Positions 7,059 through 20,193 of a stretch of 64,000 nucleotides of DNA are shown here, one piece after another. The notes under the pieces are model-generated. The model was not told the DNA's origin. It made no database searches and saw only the letters and a program-made list of their open reading frames with translations. The position numbers were made by a program, and so were the translations under genes. Within the stretch, counting starts at the first letter, position 1. The number at the start of each line of letters is the position of its first letter. This stretch comes from an uncultured archaeon (GTDB taxonomy: Archaea > Asgardarchaeota > Thorarchaeia > Thorarchaeales > Thorarchaeaceae). The stretch is taken from contig CAZLEV010000002.1 of NCBI GenBank assembly GCA_964558645.1, forward strand, positions 224,001 to 288,000, read 5' to 3'.

Positions 7059-8858
7059 TCAATGCTGGAAATAGGGGCTATCTATATCACTCTGGTCTTC
7101 GAATCCAACATCATCCAGCATGGAACCCATGGGTTGCGCACCACATGTCCACGATAAGCTGACAGTTCCATCTTCCTTGAAATCAAGTACTACATCCGGA
7201 AGGTCACCGAAGAGATTATGGTCGGCCTCCAGTACATCCTGATAGGCACCAGTCAAGCCAATCAGAAAATAGCCAACCTCGGCAGGGTCGGCCACAGGTA
7301 TGCCGGTGATCACTCTGTTCCTCGAACTCGTTATGAATCGATTGTCCTTGCTTAGTATCGGCTCATCAGGAGTGTGCCTAACGACAAAGGGAGAGATCTC
7401 CCCGTCACTGTCACAGGTCATGTCCACGAGCCGGACCGTTGCTGCAGGGTGTTTGTTGTGTCCAGAGAGAGGAATGACAGGAAAGTGCTGCTGAACAAAG
7501 ACATGGTCGAGACAGCTGTTGAAGACACTGAAATTACCTATCGAAATATAGTCCGGCTGCATGATCCAAGCGTAGAGATTCGCAGGCACGTGAATCCCTT
7601 TTTGCACAATACGTTTTCTAAGGATTGTCTTCAACAGAGTGACGAGTGTCTCGCGTTCAAGTAACTCGTCTAAGTCTCCCGTGGGCGTATCTGGTTCAAT
7701 GATCTCCCGCCAGATTGCATAGATAGCATCTTCACTCTGTGCTGCCTCAATCTTCTCTCTCCAACGAGCCAAGAGGGGATCTGACAAGTCAATCTCGGGC
7801 AGAAGACGGCGGGTCTCAATCACTTCCACAAGTATCATCGAACTCTGTGCAGTGATGGCTCTCCCCGCCTCTGTCATGATGTCCGGGTGATCTTCTGCAC
7901 CCTTCCGCTCACAGACATCCTGGATGGCTCTTAGAACCGTATTGAAATATACTGAAATGGGGTCCTTCGTAAAGAGACTCTCGTAATCAACCGGGATACC
8001 ACCACCCAAGTCTATGGTATCGAGCGCCCTGTAGCCCCTCTCCTTGAGAGAGAAGAATACTTCGGCCATATATTTTCCAAAATCGTGCATGTTTGTCTCA
8101 AGGTTGGTCAGCTGCGAGCCAATGTGAGCGTGGATTGTCCGAACATCGTCAAGGAGGCTGTTCTCTCTGAGGATATCTGTCACTTCGAATAAATCCTGAA
8201 CTGAGAGTCCGAACTTTGAATACCTACCGCCTGAGTGATGCCAGTGGCCGCTGGACTTGACGTATGGTTTGACTCTAAGGGCCAAATCGATATCACCGGG
8301 TTCGAAGAAATCAACCGCCAGATGCACTTCAGGAATGCTTTCGAGACAGACAAGTACATTGTGTCCAGCTTCAGATGCCTTCTTGGAGATGGTGAAGTAG
8401 TCTCTGTCTTTAACCCCGTTGCAGAAAATCAACCGATTCTTGTCTTCGCCGATAGCCCTCACGACCAAGAGCATTTCAGTCTTCGAGCCTGCTTCCAAGC
8501 CGTATCTGATGTCTGAGTTCAAGATGGTCCTGATGCAATCTACCTGCTGGTTAACCTTCACTGGGTAGAGAGGTTTGTACTCACCCTTGTACCCCTCTCT
8601 CAATCTATAGGACTCGAAGGCGTTGTTTAGTCTTCGAATCTTCATTGTTATGAATTGAGGAACACGGAGGGTGAAGGTAGAGGTATACCCCACTTCGGAG
8701 GAGTACTTACGGCGGACACGTTCTATCAAGTCTTGAAAAGGGAAGAGCCGGTCATCGAACTTGAGGCAGAGATTCCCGTCGGAATTGATGTCGAGGAAAT
8801 CCAAGTCACCACGGCCAACACCATGTATGAACTTGGCGTCCTCAACAGACCACATCAT
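7059..8858 (-). CDS. speA: Biosynthetic PLP-dependent arginine decarboxylase (bacterial SpeA type)
   Basis: WSVEDA N-terminus, PLP-lysine motif YPVKVNQ, GLEAGSK, CNGVKD, SKFGL, HAHIGSQ, DLGGG, EAGRA, NFSVF, DMTCDSDG, GAYQ...HNLFG. Confidence 0.9.
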   Translation of the reverse strand: MMWSVEDAKFIHGVGRGDLDFLDINSDGNLCLKFDDRLFPFQDLIERVRRKYSSEVGYTSTFTLRVPQFITMKIRRLNNAFESYRLREGYKGEYKPLYPVKVNQQVDCIRTILNSDIRYGLEAGSKTEMLLVVRAIGEDKNRLIFCNGVKDRDYFTISKKASEAGHNVLVCLESIPEVHLAVDFFEPGDIDLALRVKPYVKSSGHWHHSGGRYSKFGLSVQDLFEVTDILRENSLLDDVRTIHAHIGSQLTNLETNMHDFGKYMAEVFFSLKERGYRALDTIDLGGGIPVDYESLFTKDPISVYFNTVLRAIQDVCERKGAEDHPDIMTEAGRAITAQSSMILVEVIETRRLLPEIDLSDPLLARWREKIEAAQSEDAIYAIWREIIEPDTPTGDLDELLERETLVTLLKTILRKRIVQKGIHVPANLYAWIMQPDYISIGNFSVFNSCLDHVFVQQHFPVIPLSGHNKHPAATVRLVDMTCDSDGEISPFVVRHTPDEPILSKDNRFITSSRNRVITGIPVADPAEVGYFLIGLTGAYQDVLEADHNLFGDLPDVVLDFKEDGTVSLSWTCGAQPMGSMLDDVGFEDQSDIDSPYFQH

Positions 8859-10297
8859 TCCTCCTCCTCTGCTTCATCGATAAGAACATCCATCAGGCTG
8901 TCAAATGCCCGGGATAGGTCACCAATCTCGTCACCCCGAGATGTCTGTTTGACGTTGAGTTTCAGCTCTAACGGTTCAATAGAACTCTTGGTGAACTTCA
9001 CCACTGCAGCCTTTCGTATTCGTTCCATTATCTCCTGCAATGGTCCTGTCACCGTGCCTGCAACCCAATACCCAAGAATGCCTGAGATGATTATACCAAC
9101 CATCCCCACATACATGATCTGCTCAATTGTGAGTCTTAGAGTGGATGTGATCCGATTCTGAAGCAATGGAATTGCCTCCAAGACCTCATCGAGGGGGACT
9201 ATCAGCACACAGATGTATCCGCTCTTGCCGACAGGGGTATACACAAGGAGTCGTTCTTCTACTCCTCGCCGGTATTCAAGAGAGCCGTCTTCTCCTGAAG
9301 TGATTGCATCAATCTGGAGGAGTGTTAGCGAATCTGATTCGACTGCACTGAATTCGGGAAGCCCCTCTTCATATGCAGAATCGGGTACTTCAGGATGTGC
9401 AACTACCAGACCATCGCTTTGAATCAGAGTTGCGTAGCCATTCTCATACACATCTATGTCCAAGACGCGATTCTTGATGTCTTGGATTGTAATGTCTCCA
9501 GCGATGACACCTAGCATCTGATTGTTCTCATGGAACACAGCCTTACCGATCGATATCAGAAGCACTTCGTCTATCGGATCATAATATGGTTCTACAAAGA
9601 CGATGTCCCCATCTCCTGCTGCAATCTCAAGATACCAATCATCAAGAGTGGGATACCAGGGGTCCAGCTGCCTCTCTGCATCAGTTCCTCCTAGGATACT
9701 CCCGGGGTAGTTGATGAACATATCATTGTCTGCGAATGTGAAATAGAGCCATCTGAACTCCGGAACTCGATCTCGGATAGATCTGAAGATATTGTCCATG
9801 TTGGACACAAGGCCAAGGCGTTCTGAAGAGGCGCCTGCGTAGGTTGCCCAATTCGAGCTGTCAGACCCGGGAATGTACCAGCTGCTATACTCCCAAGAAA
9901 CATTGATTCCATAGTCCGGGTCAAACTCTATGTCGGCAGGATGCGGACCTTCGGAGGGGTTTTCGAAGAAATAGTCGTAATAGGTCTCACGGGCGAAATA
10001 GGTATTCTCATCACTGAAGAGGCGTTCTATCTCTTCAGCCATGCTGATGACCATTCCTTCAGCAGTGGTCAGTTTTTGGTTTATCACATTTGATGTGGTG
10101 ACGCCTGTGGCCAGCATATCATTGATTGCCTGCCCCTTGAGAGCATCTATGCTCCGAGAAGTCGTTGTGTCACCTATCAACACTCCAAACCCCATTGAGA
10201 AAGCAGTTGTCAGAGCAACAGATGCGGTTGTGATTACCAGAAAGGCCACCAGCATTGTTCTCTTGAAGCTAGTTCCGGTTGTTCTATTCTTTGCCAT
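8855..10297 (-). CDS. Membrane sensor TM-dCache-TM-HAMP with no output domain
   Basis: Two hydrophobic segments; Cache motifs FRWLYF...FINYPG, DDWY, EPYYD, GVIAGDIT, GYATLI..DG.VVAHP; HAMP ending GDEIGDLSRAFDSLM, then stop after ~11 residues. Confidence 0.85.
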   Translation of the reverse strand: MAKNRTTGTSFKRTMLVAFLVITTASVALTTAFSMGFGVLIGDTTTSRSIDALKGQAINDMLATGVTTSNVINQKLTTAEGMVISMAEEIERLFSDENTYFARETYYDYFFENPSEGPHPADIEFDPDYGINVSWEYSSWYIPGSDSSNWATYAGASSERLGLVSNMDNIFRSIRDRVPEFRWLYFTFADNDMFINYPGSILGGTDAERQLDPWYPTLDDWYLEIAAGDGDIVFVEPYYDPIDEVLLISIGKAVFHENNQMLGVIAGDITIQDIKNRVLDIDVYENGYATLIQSDGLVVAHPEVPDSAYEEGLPEFSAVESDSLTLLQIDAITSGEDGSLEYRRGVEERLLVYTPVGKSGYICVLIVPLDEVLEAIPLLQNRITSTLRLTIEQIMYVGMVGIIISGILGYWVAGTVTGPLQEIMERIRKAAVVKFTKSSIEPLELKLNVKQTSRGDEIGDLSRAFDSLMDVLIDEAEEEE

Positions 10298-10311: not shown

Positions 10312-13056
10312 TTAGAAGTCCACCTGTGTTCCTCCCATCTCGAGTTGAGTTTGCATCTCGTCCTCGATGCCTTCGAATCTCTGAAGAATTCCTTCCTGTT
10401 CTTTGCCAGCCTCTGAAACCGGCAGGTACGTGGCACCTTCAATCCGCTTGCACATTCTCTCTAGGACCCGTTCGTGATCTGAACTGCACATGACTCCGAT
10501 GATTCGCAGTTTTATATCACCCTCCAAACGATTGGCGAACCGAACGATAGAGTCTTCATTATGGGTCCTTGAAGAGTTGTCCTCGCCATCAGTGAGTGCG
10601 ACAATCCACCGCTCAGCATTCTGTTCGTTGGCAATGTTCATGAGAGCCAGACCGAGTGCGTCATAGAAAGCTGTGGCCCCGCCAAGGCGAAGCGCGCGGG
10701 CAATCTCCTTCCTTGCAGTAGAATAGTCTGGGCCCAATGGTGCAAGCCTGCGGAGTTCACTGACAACAGTGTCGAATGCCAACACACCAACACTATCATC
10801 AGGTTGCGCCACAGCATCAACCATCCTCTGAGCACCTGCAACTGCCGCCTTTATTCTACCGCTCTGCCCCATGCTCCCCGATTTATCGATGACGAAGACG
10901 ATGGCACGCCGCACTCGATGTCTCACAGTGGAACCCAGAATCTTCTCCGCCTGACGACGGATTTCATGACTCGGCTCACCCATATCTTCAAGAACATCAG
11001 CCAGAAGGGAGAGCGATCTGCCCGCAAGAGGCCACTCCTCATTCTCCTGTGACATGTTGGCAGCCTCAACAAGATCAGACCGGGCATCTTCGTACATTGC
11101 CATCTCGTAGTACATCATACCTCTGTGATAGTACACATAGGATTTTGACCGTTCATAGTATGTTCCTTCAAGAAGCTCAAGCGCCCGGTCAAACATCTCT
11201 CTGGCTTCATCAAACTCCTTCAGGGCCATCTTACAGACCCCGATGGTGTCGAATTGATTGGCCATGCCTCGATTGTTTCCCAGTTTCTTGTTGATTTCCA
11301 ATGCTTCCTCCAGATGGGTCAGGGCCTTGCGGTAGTTCTCCCTCTTTGGTGACATCTCGAGGGCGCCGAAGTTGTGCATGACATCGGCAATACGCACCTG
11401 AGCATCCTTTCTTTCTAGGTCAGTCTTTGCTTCTTTCAGCATCTGACGGGCTAGTCCTTCTGCAGATTGATACCTCGCCGATGCCTCCTGCAGTTGGCCT
11501 CTTTGTCTGTGAACATTTCCAATATTGAGGTCTGCAGCCTGGATGCCTTGAATCACCTTGAAATCGACACAGAGTTGTCGAAGCCGAGTATACGTTTCTA
11601 GAGCAAGTGCCAAGTTTCCTCTGATGAACTCCTTGTTGCCAGCTCGCATCGAGTCTTGGAGATTCTGAATTGCCTCCATGGTGATCTGCAGTTCCTTATA
11701 CCGCAGGTCATGTATGGGAACCATTCCAGTCAAGTCGCCACGGCTCATATTGATCAAGACATCTGTGGCTTGTGCAAGTGGTTTGGCCATCTCTTCGCCT
11801 TTTCTGGCCGCATATTTCGACGAAACATAGATTGTGACTGCTACACAGCCAACAAGAATCCCGATGATTATCAGGCTCTGAAAGCCAATCGCTGCGGAGA
11901 GAGCGAGTGCAGCTTCAATCACATCCGTTTCAGGAGTAACCGTACACAGAACCATACCGGTCGTAGGGACTCTCTCAAATGTTAGATACCATTTTCTGCC
12001 TTGCTTCGTATATTCAATCTGGCCACTACTGTTTGTCAGAATGTCAGGGAGAATAGAGGAGAATGCATCAGCCTCTGAAGATGCGGAGCCACCAAACTCA
12101 GCATCATAGATATCTTGGCCTTCAGCCGTAAACGAGGGGTGTGCTATCAGGCCCCCGGCGGTTCCAAGAAGGAAAGCATACCCGTTCTCACTAATCTCCT
12201 GAGAGAGTACTTCGTTGTTAATTGTGTCAAGAGTCACGTCAGCGGAAACAACACCAATCAGCGTGTTGTTGTCGAATCGGATGGGCCGGCCCATGGACAA
12301 TACAAGGCCAGTGGACGGATCACCATAGGGTTCTGTGACAGCAATGGAATCATCCAAGATATCGGCAGCGTTGAGATACCATTCCTCTGAATTGGGATCA
12401 TAATCCTCTCCTTCTCCATACCAGTCCAAGAAGTATTCCAGATTGTCATAGGGGTAGTTCCTGAATAGATGTCGATTCGAGATTGAGAGGTCAAAGCCCA
12501 TATACAGCCAGATATAGTCCGAACTCATTTCATGAAGCGACTGGAATATGTTGTCCATATTGGACGATGTGTCCAAGACATAGCGCATATCATCGTCCCA
12601 TTGGAATGGGTCGTCGTCAATGTAGTAGTCTCTAGGCATGTAGTAACAACTGACATCAAACGATATGCTGTCCGATTCATACTCATCGATGGATTGCAGA
12701 TTAGGGACTGTATAGCCCGTATTGGCGAGCTCAAGACTGGGATTCCAGAAGTAAGAGTGACGCGGGCTAGCATCATACCGTTCGTTGAATAGATTCTCGG
12801 CATAGTCCTCCATCATGTAGACACCATGGAAGTACTGCTCTATCCGCTCCTCAATGAAGGTGGCAGTATCAGCTGTTACCCTCTGCAGACTTCCCAGTTC
12901 CTCCTTAGTCAAAGCCTCTGCGGCTTCAGCCGTGTTCTGTTCTGACATGAAATACACGCTAGAAACCATGTATGAAGCAATCAGAAGCACGGAGATGATA
13001 ACTGAAGCGCTAAGGCCTCTTGTAACTTTCTTTGTAATACTCCAGGTCTCAAACAT
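10312..13056 (-). CDS. Membrane receptor TM-dCache-TM-HAMP-TPR-VWA
   Basis: Cache YIWLYMG..RNYP..YDPNSEEWY..EPYGD..GVVSAD; HAMP KPL...GDLT; several TPRs (LNIGNVHRQRGQLQEA, HNFGAL, DTIGVC, YHRGMMY); VWA MIDAS IDKSGSM / GGATAFYDAL / LTDGED. ATG 13056 has a GGAG upstream. Confidence 0.88.
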   Translation of the reverse strand: MFETWSITKKVTRGLSASVIISVLLIASYMVSSVYFMSEQNTAEAAEALTKEELGSLQRVTADTATFIEERIEQYFHGVYMMEDYAENLFNERYDASPRHSYFWNPSLELANTGYTVPNLQSIDEYESDSISFDVSCYYMPRDYYIDDDPFQWDDDMRYVLDTSSNMDNIFQSLHEMSSDYIWLYMGFDLSISNRHLFRNYPYDNLEYFLDWYGEGEDYDPNSEEWYLNAADILDDSIAVTEPYGDPSTGLVLSMGRPIRFDNNTLIGVVSADVTLDTINNEVLSQEISENGYAFLLGTAGGLIAHPSFTAEGQDIYDAEFGGSASSEADAFSSILPDILTNSSGQIEYTKQGRKWYLTFERVPTTGMVLCTVTPETDVIEAALALSAAIGFQSLIIIGILVGCVAVTIYVSSKYAARKGEEMAKPLAQATDVLINMSRGDLTGMVPIHDLRYKELQITMEAIQNLQDSMRAGNKEFIRGNLALALETYTRLRQLCVDFKVIQGIQAADLNIGNVHRQRGQLQEASARYQSAEGLARQMLKEAKTDLERKDAQVRIADVMHNFGALEMSPKRENYRKALTHLEEALEINKKLGNNRGMANQFDTIGVCKMALKEFDEAREMFDRALELLEGTYYERSKSYVYYHRGMMYYEMAMYEDARSDLVEAANMSQENEEWPLAGRSLSLLADVLEDMGEPSHEIRRQAEKILGSTVRHRVRRAIVFVIDKSGSMGQSGRIKAAVAGAQRMVDAVAQPDDSVGVLAFDTVVSELRRLAPLGPDYSTARKEIARALRLGGATAFYDALGLALMNIANEQNAERWIVALTDGEDNSSRTHNEDSIVRFANRLEGDIKLRIIGVMCSSDHERVLERMCKRIEGATYLPVSEAGKEQEGILQRFEGIEDEMQTQLEMGGTQVDF

Positions 13057-13060
13057 ATGT

Positions 13061-14521
13061 CTAACTCCCTTGCTCACTCAACAATTTGATAATCTCATCA
13101 ACTACTCTTTCAAGCTCTTCCTTTGACTCGAAAGCGAAGGATTTCGTGTCAATGAACTCGCCTGCAATCTGCCCTTTGCCACGCAGCAGAATAAGCGCTC
13201 TACGTATGGTCGCTGCGTCGAGCTCATGGTCTACATCAGGATCCTGTAGTGCGGCCTTCATATCAAGGAGGTCGCCGAACTCGATCTTGTTACCCGAAAC
13301 CACACTGGATAGTAATTTCCTTGCATCACGTTTTGACATCGACGGGGTGACCAAAGCGCCCCTCAAGCCAGTGAACACGAAAGTTCTACCATCGTCTTCA
13401 AAGTGACCAGATATCATCTCACGTCTAACCATCTCCTGCAGCTGACGGCGTAGGTTGTAGACAGCGGGACGGGGAAGTGATCGCCTGATGACTCTGTCAA
13501 GCTCCCTCAAAGTGATGCGGGGATTTAGTGATGTCACAGACAGTATGGTCTCACTGATGAATTCATCAATCTGCTGTGGCTGTAATGCATCCAGTATAGC
13601 CCCACAACTCGCACAGCTCGGCGTTTCTGGCGACACTGGGGCACCACAATGACCGCATCGAATAGCCCTCCGATAGACAGTTTCCTTCGTAGAAGATATC
13701 TCCTCGATGACTCGACGAGTGAGTGAAGACATCGCATTGCCTTTGACACGATATATCTCTAGGGCAGGAAGCCGTGTTCCGATAGCCAAGTAAAGGATGT
13801 CACTACGTGGGTGCCGATCTGCGTCAATGGCAAATGGGCGCTCTGAAAGATCCAATTCCTGTACCAGACCCCCACCCATATCCCAAATCCTCAGAGTACT
13901 CGACTTGTCCCCTGTGGCAAACAGTTTGTCGTTCTCCAAGTTCAGGACTGTACCTACTCGTATCTTCGAAGGAACCGTGAACTGTTTCAACAAGTAGCCA
14001 GCTGCAGATAGGATGCTGATATTGCCGCTGCGCTCCATCACAACTATCTCATATTCCGGATCATCCGTGATGTTCTCTAATCTGACAGAAACAACGGGTG
14101 ACGGAAACGATCGTGTAAACAGCTTGATGTCATCGTTCCACAAGGACACGGTATTATCGCGCATGGCAGCTGCAAACTCGTCCGCATAGTCGCCATCAAT
14201 ATCGGCCGCATCACAGGTTATGACCGGACTAGACTTTGCTATATGGTAGATAATCTGCCCTTTGTTGCCAATGACTATAACACAGTCCTTCGTCCCTGCA
14301 ACAATGTCGTCATAACCGTCAGCATCGATATCACCGATGGCTACGGTTCTAACCTTGGAGGTCCATTTTCGAGAACTTGTTTCTTTCCCGGCAGGAGAGA
14401 ATACTTTGAGTTTCTCGTCGTAGTCGATAGTGTATATCTCGACGCCCCTCTTTGTGGTTCTGACAAAGATGTCGTATATCAGGGACTCTGTATTCCTTAT
14501 TGATGTACGACTAATCTCCAT
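13061..14521 (-). CDS. FG-GAP-like beta-propeller + Zn ribbon + two PCI-like winged-helix domains
   Basis: GDIDADGYDDIVAG, ADIDGDYADEF, ENITDDPEYEIVV repeats and ATGD...LRIWD; CGHC...CASC; ITLRELD...LQEMVRREMISGHFED and TIRRALILLRGKGQIAGEFID. Start chosen at ATG 14521. Confidence 0.72.
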   Translation of the reverse strand: MEISRTSIRNTESLIYDIFVRTTKRGVEIYTIDYDEKLKVFSPAGKETSSRKWTSKVRTVAIGDIDADGYDDIVAGTKDCVIVIGNKGQIIYHIAKSSPVITCDAADIDGDYADEFAAAMRDNTVSLWNDDIKLFTRSFPSPVVSVRLENITDDPEYEIVVMERSGNISILSAAGYLLKQFTVPSKIRVGTVLNLENDKLFATGDKSSTLRIWDMGGGLVQELDLSERPFAIDADRHPRSDILYLAIGTRLPALEIYRVKGNAMSSLTRRVIEEISSTKETVYRRAIRCGHCGAPVSPETPSCASCGAILDALQPQQIDEFISETILSVTSLNPRITLRELDRVIRRSLPRPAVYNLRRQLQEMVRREMISGHFEDDGRTFVFTGLRGALVTPSMSKRDARKLLSSVVSGNKIEFGDLLDMKAALQDPDVDHELDAATIRRALILLRGKGQIAGEFIDTKSFAFESKEELERVVDEIIKLLSEQGS

Positions 14522-14680
14522 TTTGATAGATTGTACATTTTGAGCATATAAACAATGACTAAGATTTTCCAGTTTGAGAGCTGAAGATAGCTCCTGTATC
14601 AATGGATATATGATGAATCAGAGCAACGGAAGTTGAATCCGATCATTGTATGTCAGACTAGAGGACTCGTGAGGTTCAGA

Positions 14681-18852: not shown

Positions 18853-20193
18853 TTACTGAGGGGCGCTCTGCTGAAGAGGAGATTCTAACTCAGATGGCCC
18901 CTTAGATTTCGATGCCATTTGCTGATTTGCCCGATCCTCCAAGTTCCGTGCTGCTGGTGCAAGCATAACCGCCGCACTCAGTACCGCGGTCACAACACCA
19001 GAGATTAGAAACCAGAGGGGTACGCCAAAGGCATCAGCAAATGGGCCTGCAAATGCAAGACCCACGGGCGACATTGCAGATGCACCACTTACGATGAGCG
19101 CAAAGACACGCCCTTGCATGTCGGCGGGAATAGTAATCTGAAGGAGAGCAAGGATCAGTCCATTGAATATGGGAATCATGAATCCGACTAAGAAGAGCAT
19201 CAATACAGCAAAGTGGAGATAGTCGGGTGGCGTGAGGCCGACAAGGACGGTCCCGACTCCCTCAATTACGAGAGCAAAGAGTGCTACTCGCATCTTCCGA
19301 CTTGGGCCACCCCAGATCGTGAGGAGTACTCCTCCGAGAACCATTCCTAAGGAGCTGGCGGACTGGAGAAGAGCGAGTGTGACCTCATCACCTCCGAAAT
19401 GAACGGTGCTAAGAATCGGTATAAGAGAGAAGGCTGGAGTCGATACCAGGTTCAATACCATTGCGAGAGCAAGAATCAGAATTGCCCCTGGCCAACCGCG
19501 TAGAAATCTCAAGCCTTCGACCATGTCCTTCAACGGATTACTCCCCGCCTCCATCGTTTCCTGTGGGGGTTTTGGGATGCGAATGAAAGCCAAGGACGAC
19601 ACAGCAGCCGCTGCAGTTAGGACATCAACTAGCAGGAGCTGATGCATGGGCAGGATGACAAATAGGAGAGCTGCAACGGGCGGGGCCAGCACGTTGGCGA
19701 GGCCATTCAGAGCCTGATTCATGCCGCCAACACGTGGAAGCTGATCCTCGGGAACAAGCATTGTTGTCGATGCTTGCATCGCTGGCCAATGAAAGGAACC
19801 CAGTACTGACCCGAGCAGTATGACAGCATACATATGCCATATCTGAACAATGCCAGGCAGAGCGAAGGAATTCAGATAGAACAGAAGTGCCAAACCTCCC
19901 GTGAGAACTGCAGTGAGCGAGTCTGCCACAATCATGACATGCCTACGATCCCATCTGTCGACCAGAGAGCCAGCAAAGGGAGTAATAGCAACCTGTGGAG
20001 CGACGGCTGCTATTGATGCTATTGCAAGAACCGTTGCAGACCCGGTCTCCAGAGTAAGCCACCAAACGATAACGAAACGGACCAGACGGCTACCGAAAAG
20101 CGAAAACGCCTGTCCCACCCACATGGTAGCAAATGGTTTCATCGATGCTGGGCGATGGATCTCACGCCCCGCAGGTGATTGCGTTTCGTTCAT
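18853..20193 (-). CDS. MFS transporter, DHA3/MefA-like
   Basis: WVGQAFSLFGS, GSLVDRWDRR, FHWPAMQAS, QGRVF; about 12 TM segments. Confidence 0.9.
   Translation of the reverse strand: MNETQSPAGREIHRPASMKPFATMWVGQAFSLFGSRLVRFVIVWWLTLETGSATVLAIASIAAVAPQVAITPFAGSLVDRWDRRHVMIVADSLTAVLTGGLALLFYLNSFALPGIVQIWHMYAVILLGSVLGSFHWPAMQASTTMLVPEDQLPRVGGMNQALNGLANVLAPPVAALLFVILPMHQLLLVDVLTAAAAVSSLAFIRIPKPPQETMEAGSNPLKDMVEGLRFLRGWPGAILILALAMVLNLVSTPAFSLIPILSTVHFGGDEVTLALLQSASSLGMVLGGVLLTIWGGPSRKMRVALFALVIEGVGTVLVGLTPPDYLHFAVLMLFLVGFMIPIFNGLILALLQITIPADMQGRVFALIVSGASAMSPVGLAFAGPFADAFGVPLWFLISGVVTAVLSAAVMLAPAARNLEDRANQQMASKSKGPSELESPLQQSAPQ

Follow-up and report, generated by a model that had tools for sequence, protein, structure and literature searches.

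For almost all archaeal receptors the ligand is unknown, and the literature searched shows no Asgard sensor with an assigned signal. The window, a 64,000-nucleotide stretch of DNA from an uncultured member of the Thorarchaeales, encodes two membrane proteins with dCache_1 sensor domains, CacheB and CacheA, beside a SpeA-like decarboxylase. In both domains an acidic residue stands where amino-acid receptors have the arginine that binds the ligand carboxylate, which raises the question of what these proteins sense. The original prediction was that the ligand is a decarboxylated, cationic amine and matches the product of the co-encoded SpeA.

Organization of the gene cassette

The genes of the cassette lie on the minus strand, and translations of the plus strand are meaningless here. 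The first gene (13061-14602, minus strand) encodes a cytoplasmic protein of 513 amino acids, for which Pfam gave an FG-GAP/BBS2-like beta-propeller and a zinc ribbon, followed by a C-terminal helical part. It was syntenic in each of the 16 family loci with sequence upstream of CacheB, and the order propeller, CacheB, CacheA, SpeA was kept through the whole family. In other families only a weak propeller relative was present near the Cache pair.

CacheB (10312-13077, minus strand) is a membrane receptor with an open reading frame of 921 amino acids. Its residues are numbered from the GTG start at 13077; a start at the ATG at 13056 would move the numbers by -7. Two hydrophobic segments, TM1 (residues ~20-45) and TM2 (residues ~398-421), enclose an extracytoplasmic dCache_1 domain (Pfam, 68.8 bits against a gathering cut-off of 45). 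TM2 is followed by a weak HAMP domain, by TPR repeats (residues ~480-693, Pfam TPR_12) and by a VWA domain with the DxSxS motif (residues ~719-877, Pfam VWA_2/VWA). No kinase, MCP or cyclase output was found in CacheB by the Pfam domain search. CacheA (8855-10297, minus strand) is a membrane protein of 480 amino acids consisting of TM1, dCache_1 (64.9 bits, cut-off 45), TM2, HAMP (24.4 bits) and a short acidic tail. The Pfam domain search found no output domain in it, and CacheA is probably a co-receptor. The two proteins are the only dCache_1 genes of the genome.

The start codon of the SpeA-like gene (7059-8858, minus strand) overlaps the stop codon of the CacheA gene (ATGA). Its product of 599 amino acids is a PLP-dependent decarboxylase of fold III (Pfam Orn_Arg_deC_N); it was the only PF02784 match in the genome and the only candidate for an arginine decarboxylase found there. 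The best relatives in the PDB were the arginine decarboxylases 3NZQ, 3NZP and 3N2O (E 2e-63 to 1.5e-53). With 3NZQ, YPVKVNQ paired with YPIKVNQ (the PLP-lysine motif), HAHIGSQ with HFHLGSQ, and TCDSDG with TCDSDG (the C-terminal CDSDG substrate loop). The protein is a full-length but divergent homologue of the solved arginine decarboxylases. Because its scores lie below the NCBIfam equivalog cut-offs (NF003763, 350.6 against 369 bits; TIGR01273, 323.1 against 624.1), arginine is a putative and not a proven substrate. A CacheA-SpeA fusion suggested by an open frame of 1146 amino acids in genome G015 was rejected, as the frame consists of two ORFs split by a TAG stop.

Searches of the genome, which is 93% complete, found no gene for PdaD, AdoMetDC or spermidine synthase. 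TiaS, which requires agmatine, and one agmatinase-family protein are encoded. The amines expected from the host cell are therefore agmatine and perhaps putrescine.

Replacement of the carboxylate-binding arginine

In PctA, the ligand carboxylate is bound by Y121, R126 and W128 and the amino group by Y144 and D173 (PMC8915833, PMC6974571), and the premise of the original prediction on the carboxylate-binding Arg agrees with this literature. These positions (Y121-R126-W128...Y144...D173) form the motif of dCache_1AA, the universal amino-acid sensor that includes PctA, PctB, PctC, Mlp24, Mlp37 and CtaA (Gumerov et al. 2022, PMC8915833).

The corresponding segment of CacheB, YDPNSEEWY (12376-12402, minus strand; residues 226-234), contains Y226, E231, E232, W233 and Y234, and the codon of E231 (12385-12387, minus strand) replaces that of PctA R126. 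Farther downstream, EPYGD (12319-12333, minus strand) supplies Y251 and D253, which align with the amino-group contacts Y144 and D146 of PctA, and D280 in GVVSAD (12238-12240, minus strand) occupies the column of D173, an essential amino-group ligand. When residues 225-315 were aligned with PctA (phmmer against the PDB), no gap occurred across the motif, and YDPNSEEWY paired with YDPRSRPWY, TEPYGD with TEPYVD, and GVVSAD with GVVGGD. Y226 and W233 are retained, and as their PctA equivalents help to bind the carboxylate, this speaks against an amine ligand.

In CacheA, the segment WYPTLDDWY (9632-9658, minus strand; residues 214-222) contains W214, D219, D220, W221 and Y222, and it paired with WDPRVRPWY of the Vibrio Mlp receptors, again without a gap (phmmer against the PDB). 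Here R126 is replaced by D219 (codon 9641-9643, minus strand). EPYYD (9578-9592, minus strand) provides Y238 and D240 as the counterparts of Y144 and D146 of PctA, and D268 in GVIAGD (9494-9496, minus strand) is invariant in the D173 column. P237, Y238 and D240 were likewise invariant across the alignment of CacheA orthologues. The positions first reported for both segments were thus correct, and the claims that both pockets have an acidic residue in place of Arg and keep the amino-group residues were borne out, E231 and D219 both aligning gaplessly onto the R126 column.

Position 231 was Glu in 17 of 17 CacheB family orthologues, at overall identities of 37-94%, and 17 of the 18 CacheA orthologues had Asp or Glu at position 219. 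Judged by these alignments, the substitution is not due to chance in either protein. AF2 models gave a pLDDT of 96 for residues 40-400 of CacheB and of 87.8 for CacheA, the sensor part of which exceeded 90. From the ungapped motif alignment and the confident dCache model, E231 and D219 are predicted by homology to point into the ligand pocket.

The CacheB sensor is about 100 residues longer than dCache_1AA domains, with an insertion after the first helix that bears W111, D112 and E116, and its lid loop is lengthened and strongly acidic and aromatic. CacheB proteins linked to SpeA share additional group-specific acidic residues (E60, D70, E90, D112, E116 and D225) and have gained no basic one. 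The net charge of the pocket segment was -5 to -17 in these proteins (most -8 to -14) and +1 to -9 in Arg-type relatives. CacheA has lineage-specific conserved arginines, R103, R182 and R209, which are missing from Arg-type relatives. R209, in the lid loop directly before the motif, could stand in for R126, an observation that counts against an amine ligand.

An amino acid might still be sensed, for example arginine as the substrate of SpeA, if its carboxylate were held by the kept Tyr and Trp together with an Arg from elsewhere, and its basic side chain by the acidic residue. Equivalents of Y121 and W128 are indeed kept in both proteins, the R126A exchange in PctA lowered the affinity 61-fold and did not abolish binding (PMC8915833), the three CacheA arginines could contribute, and sensing the substrate of a neighbouring enzyme is common regulatory logic. 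This explanation is nevertheless considered unlikely, since Arg to Glu or Asp is a reversal of charge at the carboxylate site and not a neutral loss, and the group-specific gains of CacheB are all acidic. Furthermore, the arginine-binding dCache domains PctB and Mlp24, which appeared as Arg-motif matches in the sequence and structure searches, retain the Arg, and families f20 and f12 have an aromatic residue at the position with an Asp next to it.

The acidic cluster (E231/E232 or D219/D220 plus two Asp) could also bind Ca2+ or Mg2+ or sense pH, the link to SpeA then reflecting a stress or acid response. In favour of this are the predicted clustering of several carboxylates, the strong negative charge of the CacheB lid, and the use of arginine decarboxylation in bacterial acid resistance. 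The acid-resistance enzyme AdiA, however, belongs to a different enzyme family from the SpeA type. Conservation extends to the Tyr of the amino-group triad, and the Phe, Tyr, Trp or Gln found in CacheB of f20 and f12 would fit cation-pi contacts to an organic ammonium and not metal coordination, so that this explanation appears quite improbable.

Fold and relation to known dCache families

Both sensors have a double PAS-like fold with a long N-terminal helix, located between two transmembrane helices. Foldseek and VIA searches against the PDB gave Z scores of 18-22 to many solved dCache domains. Among the ligand-bound structures to which the motif aligned without gaps, those of PctA, PctC and Mlp, the best structural fit was to PctC (Z 19.7, rmsd 2.1 Å over 220 residues).

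The resemblance to dCache_1AA is close: the fold matched with Z 18-20, and four of five motif positions as well as the structural Tyr129 are retained. The Y121 position is aromatic (Y226 in CacheB, W214 in CacheA), and W128 with Tyr129 is kept as W233/Y234 and W221/Y222. The nearest Asgard relatives, family f26, have the same architecture with the full motif. Differences are the Glu (CacheB) or Asp (CacheA) in place of Arg, the additional loss of Arg124 of the Asp122-Arg124 bridge, and the output, which is TPR-VWA or none here and MCP, kinase or cyclase in dCache_1AA receptors. An assignment of the two domains to dCache_1AA was rejected, as E231 and D219 take the place of R126.

The amine sensors of dCache_1AM comprise PctD, PacA, McpX and the M. 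mazei sensor mmHK1S-Z3 (PDB 3LIB) (Cerna-Vargas et al. 2023, PMC10589655). They typically bind methylamines and quaternary amines, archaeal reports come only from Halobacteriota, and the gene of the M. mazei sensor kinase is linked to an amine-metabolism gene (PMC10589655). CacheB and CacheA share with them the loss of Arg and would share the evolutionary idea of an amine sensor that arose from an amino-acid sensor. PctD F188/Y189, an aromatic pair, and D235, the last Asp, have counterparts in W233/Y234/D280 and W221/Y222/D268, but these positions are common to the AM and AA motifs (PMC10589655). From the AM motif the first Tyr is missing, and frequently also the equivalent of Tyr144, whereas CacheB and CacheA keep the first aromatic residue and Tyr144. 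In the AM domains an insertion located over the pocket contributes an Arg103-Asp133 pair, and Trp155, Met215 and Ser217 also belong to the motif. The CacheB insertion follows helix 1. In CacheB and CacheA the charge at R126 is reversed directly. The best sequence matches of CacheB in the PDB were of the amino-acid type (PctC, 7e-11; PctA, 1e-9), ahead of amine-type structures (3lib, 3e-4; 7psg, 0.03; all phmmer).

The chemoreceptors McpU and TlpQ (PDB 6F9G, 6FU4) bind ligands that include agmatine and putrescine (PMC6234866). TlpQ, which binds histamine and polyamines, holds the primary amine with a Tyr/Asp/Asp triad (Y208/D210/D239) in a highly negative pocket, and an extra Glu contacts the second nitrogen of the ligand (PMC6234866). 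The triad residues are present at identical spacing in CacheB and CacheA, and the pocket segment of CacheB is strongly acidic. Glu170 of TlpQ probably lies outside the R126 column, judged by its sequence position. With phmmer, neither protein matched 6fu4 or 6f9g at E<=1, the structural Z to 6fu4 (18.1) was no higher than that to unrelated dCache domains, and McpU and TlpQ differ as bacterial chemoreceptors with MCP output. The suggested kinship to dCache_1AM or McpU/TlpQ was not upheld, the nearest relatives in the tree being canonical amino-acid-type domains. PacG, a known agmatine-binding chemoreceptor (PMC13215616), offers no residue-level precedent for the pocket of CacheB and CacheA.

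Co-distribution of arginine loss and SpeA

In a survey of 52 Asgard loci, neither gene had Arg at the R126 column where SpeA was adjacent, without exception. The SpeA-linked non-Arg families were f1, f5, f12, f14, f18 and f20; in f12, SpeA lies 6 kb upstream rather than adjacent, and Arg is likewise missing. A reduced set of 47 proteins contained 37 that were non-Arg and SpeA-linked, none that was Arg-type and linked, five that were Arg-type and unlinked, and five that were non-Arg and unlinked, namely L067_A and four f9/f27 proteins of L086 and L087. L092_A also lacks Arg, on a contig too short to judge SpeA linkage. Among the 145 nearest cluster representatives (50% identity) that have the R126 column, 110 had Arg, 27 Glu or Asp, and 8 another residue. 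The Arg was replaced by an acidic residue or by an aromatic residue or Gln with an adjacent Asp, never by a basic one. The latter type occurred in CacheB of f20 and f12 (Phe, Tyr, Trp or Gln), and some f14 CacheB proteins had also lost the Tyr144 equivalent.

In both genes of the f26 pairs, in contrast to the SpeA-linked families, the motif is the canonical YDPRxRxWY. A search of 14 f26 genomes found SpeA in none of them, while PdaD was present in both of the f26 genomes tested and was not found in the SpeA-type genomes tested. SpeA occurs without the Cache pair in genomes G013, G393 and G006, and G003 has a decayed Cache remnant. As several genomes keep SpeA without the pair, the enzyme does not require the sensors, which, like the five unlinked non-Arg proteins, counts against the amine reading.

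A tree of 62 rows was calculated with LG+G4 in a quick search with SH-aLRT as the only support measure; redundant family members (L013, L016-L018, L020, L022, L023, L025, L026, L030, L079, L098, L066, L088, L094, L096, L074 and L097) were omitted. CacheA and CacheB proteins formed separate paralogue clades with the Arg-type f26 members basal in each, a topology that indicates independent loss of Arg in each paralogue. Parsimony gave four changes of the Arg. Only two to three phylogenetically independent contrasts were available (sign test, p ~0.5), so that the co-distribution of Arg loss and SpeA could reflect one shared history.

The small number of contrasts and the genomes with SpeA alone would also fit a pair whose distal pocket is free of ligand, the proteins forming a structural or scaffolding membrane complex or sensing through the proximal module or a partner, with SpeA nearby by descent only. 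Both proteins lack an enzymatic output domain, and the loss of Tyr144 in some f14 CacheB proteins points in the same direction. On the other hand, the strict conservation of E231, Y251, D253 and D280 at identities as low as 37%, and of the corresponding CacheA residues, argues for a working pocket, and Arg was apparently lost in parallel in two paralogues. A ligand-free pocket is accordingly given little credence.

Proposed ligand and signalling

From the pocket residues, the models and the neighbourhood we infer that CacheB and CacheA are old paralogous, outward-facing dCache_1 sensors retuned from amino acids to a cationic, carboxylate-free ligand, most likely agmatine or a near relative among primary amines and diamines, such as putrescine. 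The probability of this reading is put at roughly 0.55. Comparative genomics supports an amine ligand and does not demonstrate it. The primary ammonium of the ligand would be gripped as in amino-acid receptors by Tyr/Asp/Asp (Y251/D253/D280 and Y238/D240/D268), and the Glu or Asp at the Arg site, or in some families the aromatic residue followed by Asp, would repel a carboxylate and accept a cationic chain. The part of the original prediction that tied the ligand to the SpeA product gains from the conservation of the cassette and from the tracking of Arg loss with SpeA linkage; its weak side is the opposite location of the outward sensors and the cytoplasmic enzyme. Sensing of the SpeA product would consequently need an export or uptake step, and among the genes of the cassette no exporter or antiporter for agmatine was identified.

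For the path of the signal and the direction of regulation, we infer that TM2 and HAMP could relay the signal to cytoplasmic scaffolds without enzymatic activity, that is, the TPR repeats and MIDAS-type VWA domain of CacheB and the neighbouring propeller/zinc-ribbon protein. These might tune how much of the SpeA-type arginine decarboxylase encoded beside them is made, or how active it is. Such an output through scaffold domains would be unlike the enzymatic outputs usual in prokaryotic receptors. The sensor would be tied to the supply of agmatine, which archaea require for decoding of AUA codons via TiaS. A more far-reaching and rather doubtful scenario is that a bacterial-type SpeA displaced PdaD and came to lie beside an ancestral pair of amino-acid sensors, and that each paralogue was then retuned separately, by charge reversal at the carboxylate-binding Arg, to agmatine or a polyamine, the pair now controlling agmatine synthesis through the scaffolds (TPR, MIDAS-VWA, propeller/zinc ribbon) without phosphorylation or second messengers, as an Asgard-specific system.

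Under this doubtful scenario, the pair would form a ligand-specific subfamily, new and descended from dCache_1AA, and would exemplify a new mode of signal transduction in archaea. If retuning to an amine is correct, a single charge reversal at R126, parallel in two paralogues, is a route from amino-acid to amine sensing. The concrete prediction is that agmatine or diamines, but no amino acids, should bind to the two soluble sensor domains, with the Arg-type f26 orthologues as a natural control. The set of domains (Cache with VWA, FG-GAP propeller with VWA) recalls the eukaryotic alpha2delta proteins and integrins. Alpha2delta and CACHD1 likewise combine an amino-acid-type dCache_1 domain with VWA, and alpha2delta chains were among the top structural matches (Z 20-22). 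In alpha2delta, however, the VWA domain is extracellular and inserted in the Cache domain, whereas it is C-terminal and cytoplasmic here, and alpha2delta keeps the Arg lost from CacheB and CacheA and binds gabapentin and leucine. CacheA of family f26 matches Pfam VWA_N, a further similarity to alpha2delta.

Sensor cassette and domain architecture

The minus strand encodes a 513-aa FG-GAP-type propeller/zinc-ribbon protein (13061-14602), followed downstream by CacheB (10312-13077; 921 aa), CacheA (8855-10297; 480 aa) and a 599-aa SpeA-like decarboxylase (7059-8858), the ATG of which overlaps the CacheA stop. With 68.8 bits for CacheB and 64.9 bits for CacheA, both sensors passed the Pfam dCache_1 cut-off of 45 bits, and no other dCache_1 gene occurs in the genome (3.63 Mb, 93% complete). 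According to Pfam, the sensor part is followed in CacheB by TPR repeats and a VWA domain, and in CacheA by HAMP and a short acidic tail only. Hydrophobic helices lie at the N-terminus and after the sensor of each protein, with basic residues on their cytoplasmic side; the Cache domains therefore face outward. About 4 kb from the cassette lies a 446-aa transporter of the MFS H+-antiporter family (18853-20193, minus strand), which could be a candidate amine exporter.

Residues at the ligand pocket

The original prediction was that both pockets carry an acidic residue in place of the carboxylate-binding Arg of amino acid sensors and keep the amine-binding residues. Minus-strand translation gave YDPNSEEWY at 12376-12402 (CacheB) and WYPTLDDWY at 9632-9658 (CacheA), at the positions predicted, while the plus-strand translations were meaningless. 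When phmmer was run against the PDB, CacheB residues 225-315 aligned with PctA and PctC without gaps in the motif, placing YDPNSEEWY over PctA YDPRSRPWY, TEPYGD over TEPYVD and GVVSAD over GVVGGD. WYPTLDDWY of CacheA lay, likewise ungapped, over WDPRVRPWY of Vibrio Mlp receptors. In the published AA_motif, Y121, R126 and W128 contact the carboxylate and Y144 and D173 the amino group; R126A lowers affinity 61-fold and D173A abolishes binding (PMC8915833, PMC6974571). From these alignments and the AA_motif definition, R126 corresponds to E231 in CacheB and D219 in CacheA, Y121 to Y226 and W214, and W128 to W233 and W221. The Y144/D146/D173 columns hold Y251/D253/D280 in CacheB and Y238/D240/D268 in CacheA, and both the acidic replacement and the retained amine site were therefore confirmed.

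Structure prediction, which had been proposed as a check, gave confident models with AlphaFold2 (pLDDT 96 for CacheB residues 40-400; 87.8 for CacheA, with the sensor part above 90). Both are ordinary dCache folds (Z 18-22 against many solved domains), and the tightest fit was to PctC with GABA (rmsd 2.1 Å over 220 residues). In both models the acidic residue stands directly before the helix starting at Trp-Tyr, at the same sequence position as R126, and the side chains of E231 and D219 would, judging from homology, face the pocket.

The group-specific columns of SpeA-linked CacheB proteins (E60, D70, E90, W111, D112, E116 and D225) are all acidic or aromatic, several of them within an insertion absent from Arg-type relatives, and their lid loop is longer and contains many Asp, Glu, Tyr and Trp residues. 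Between the second strand and D280 the net charge is -5 to -17 in these proteins, mostly between -8 and -14, compared with +1 to -9 in Arg-type CacheB. This resembles, as far as sequence charge can tell, the 'highly negatively charged' pocket of TlpQ, where Tyr208/Asp210/Asp239 bind the primary amine and the second nitrogen is contacted by an additional Glu (PMC6234866). The case of CacheA is less clear. Its charge differs little from that of Arg-type proteins, and it has three conserved, lineage-specific arginines (R103, R182 and R209), of which R209, in the loop directly before the motif, could in principle take over the role of R126, which is a rival reading.

Conservation in the family and among relatives

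Of 24 genomes sampled from the window's own family, 19 had the sensor gene pair. Eighteen loci were fetched, 17 from this family and one (G039) from family f14, and the gene order propeller, CacheB, CacheA, SpeA was kept throughout, except that G039 has no propeller gene; in G014 the cassette genes are split over two contigs. The CacheB R126 column holds Glu in 17/17 family orthologues, at 37-94% identity, and Gln in the f14 locus. In CacheA, 17 of 18 orthologues have Asp or Glu and the remaining one has Gln. Both sets show almost no variation at the amino-group residues. Among the 145 nearest representatives with this column, drawn from 1.84 billion proteins clustered at 50% identity, 110 have Arg, 27 Glu or Asp and 8 another residue; within this mainly canonical family the acidic form is therefore a distinct minority.

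The propeller/zinc-ribbon gene is strictly syntenic within the window's family only. In family f18 (L066, L080) a weak relative with 24-25% identity is found a few kilobases away from the pair, on the other side.

Arginine loss and SpeA linkage in Asgard archaea

The sensor pair was found in many Asgard families, and 52 loci were tabulated for the R126-column motif and the SpeA neighbourhood. Wherever SpeA was adjacent, neither sensor gene had Arg in this column. In f14, f20 and the window's family SpeA follows CacheA co-directionally, and in f5 and f18 it is divergent from CacheB (head to head); in f12 it lies 6 kb upstream of the pair, and both sensors likewise lack Arg. The residue at SpeA-linked loci is usually Glu or Asp. 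CacheB of f20 and f12 has Phe, Tyr, Trp or Gln, then Asp, often with Glu before, and f14 CacheB has Gln or Ser where SpeA is linked and Glu on two short contigs, all of these f14 proteins also lacking the Tyr144 equivalent.

YDPRxRxWY was kept in all five f26 loci, one of them from a 6.0-Mb single-contig genome: in both genes of four, and in CacheA only of L085, whose CacheB is cut before the motif. SpeA was not found in f26 genomes (0/14), and PdaD was present in both f26 genomes tested; PdaD was not found in the four SpeA-type genomes tested (G000, G021, G094, G120). In several Asgard families PdaD, the usual enzyme of archaea, seems to have been replaced by the SpeA-like one. Where f14 and f18 have a second copy that is not linked to SpeA, it mostly retains Arg (L067_B, L076_B, L091_A, L093_A/B). 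The exceptions, with neither Arg nor an adjacent SpeA and in part on short contigs, are L067_A, L092_A and the divergent pairs of f9 and f27. In a reduced set of 47 proteins with determinable context, 37 without Arg were SpeA-linked and 5 unlinked, against 0 and 5 with Arg. As there are only two to three independent contrasts, a sign test cannot reach significance, and the pattern is suggestive, not statistical proof.

In a maximum-likelihood tree of 62 sensor domains (LG+G4, SH-aLRT only), CacheA and CacheB formed separate paralogue clades. The Arg-type f26 members, which have the same two architectures, were basal in each, which means that the two paralogues lost Arg independently; parsimony requires four changes.

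The decarboxylase and amine metabolism

Over its full length the SpeA-like protein is homologous to the solved biosynthetic arginine decarboxylases 3NZQ, 3NZP and 3N2O (E 2e-63 to 1.5e-53), and in the alignment it keeps the PLP-lysine motif and the CDSDG loop. Arginine is its likely, though unproven, substrate, since it scored below both NCBIfam arginine decarboxylase equivalog cut-offs. No other fold-III decarboxylase occurs in the genome, which also has one agmatinase-family gene and TiaS, an agmatine consumer; searches of the 93%-complete assembly for PdaD, AdoMetDC and spermidine synthase found none of them. From this inventory agmatine is the amine that the cell is expected to make.

SpeA probably has a housekeeping role, and in agreement with this several genomes keep it without the sensors (G013, G393, G006). 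The sensors are therefore an accessory module not required by SpeA, and presumably a regulatory one. In G003 the sensor genes have decayed while SpeA was kept: a short CacheA remnant (L103, C7, 8032-8340; HAMP region with TAG and TAA stops) adjoins an intact SpeA. In two f5 genomes, each a single contig and lacking the Cache pair (L102, G051:C1:1149642-1154359; L105), SpeA is duplicated in tandem, one copy inside an 874-aa ORF whose tail matches the KaiC ATPase family. A KaiC-like gene flanks the copies, which suggests that the enzyme stands in another regulatory neighbourhood in these genomes.

Proposed mechanism and relation to known sensors

The amine interpretation is partly supported. Comparison gives strong evidence that the function has shifted away from binding carboxylates and that the sensors are linked, as predicted, to the co-encoded SpeA (gene neighbourhood at 52 Asgard loci); we infer the amine ligand itself. 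The membrane-distal module would bind a cationic amine from outside the cell, agmatine or putrescine being the most likely. The Tyr/Asp/Asp triad would hold the ammonium group of the amine, and Glu/Asp (or an aromatic residue plus Asp) in the former carboxylate site would exclude amino acids. The signal might then pass via TM2 and HAMP to the TPR/VWA part and the propeller protein, which would act on SpeA. CacheA, having no output domain, probably works with CacheB, as both changed in parallel.

Assignment to dCache_1AA was ruled out because the defining Arg (R126) is missing. In dCache_1AM the first Tyr is lost, the Tyr144 equivalent is usually lost, and an insertion with Arg103-Asp133 and Trp155 is added (PMC10589655), whereas CacheB and CacheA keep the aromatic residue (Y226/W214) and the Tyr (Y251/Y238). 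Their nearest relatives are canonical amino-acid-type proteins, which argues for an origin independent of dCache_1AM. The suggested comparison with the polyamine sensors McpU and TlpQ found no significant sequence similarity to either protein (phmmer against the PDB). If the amine reading is true, the pair is a further dCache_1AA derivative besides the amine, purine and uracil classes (PMC12415202). In the literature collection searched, nothing was found on Asgard Cache sensors, agmatine-sensing dCache domains or this operon.

Alpha2delta chains were among the best structural matches to the CacheB model (10312-13077; Z 20-22). The Arg-type f26 CacheA (L073:6787-8220) matches Pfam VWA_N, which represents the N-terminal half of the Cache domain in eukaryotic alpha2delta, and many relatives of about 900 aa carry YDPRCRGWY. 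The origin of alpha2delta/CACHD1 is currently attributed to bacterial transfer, and Asgard Cache+VWA proteins may bear on it. In f12, CacheA (L072:296-2305, minus strand; L097:2694-4652, plus strand) has a C-terminal zinc ribbon and HEAT repeats after HAMP, a further scaffold output that is not enzymatic and is comparable to the TPR-VWA part in CacheB.

Elsewhere in the window's genome (L031, G000:C10:124412-126689), an archaeal 16S rRNA match spans 2278 nt against a model of 1478 positions, so about 800 nt are inserted in the gene, possibly an intron or homing element.
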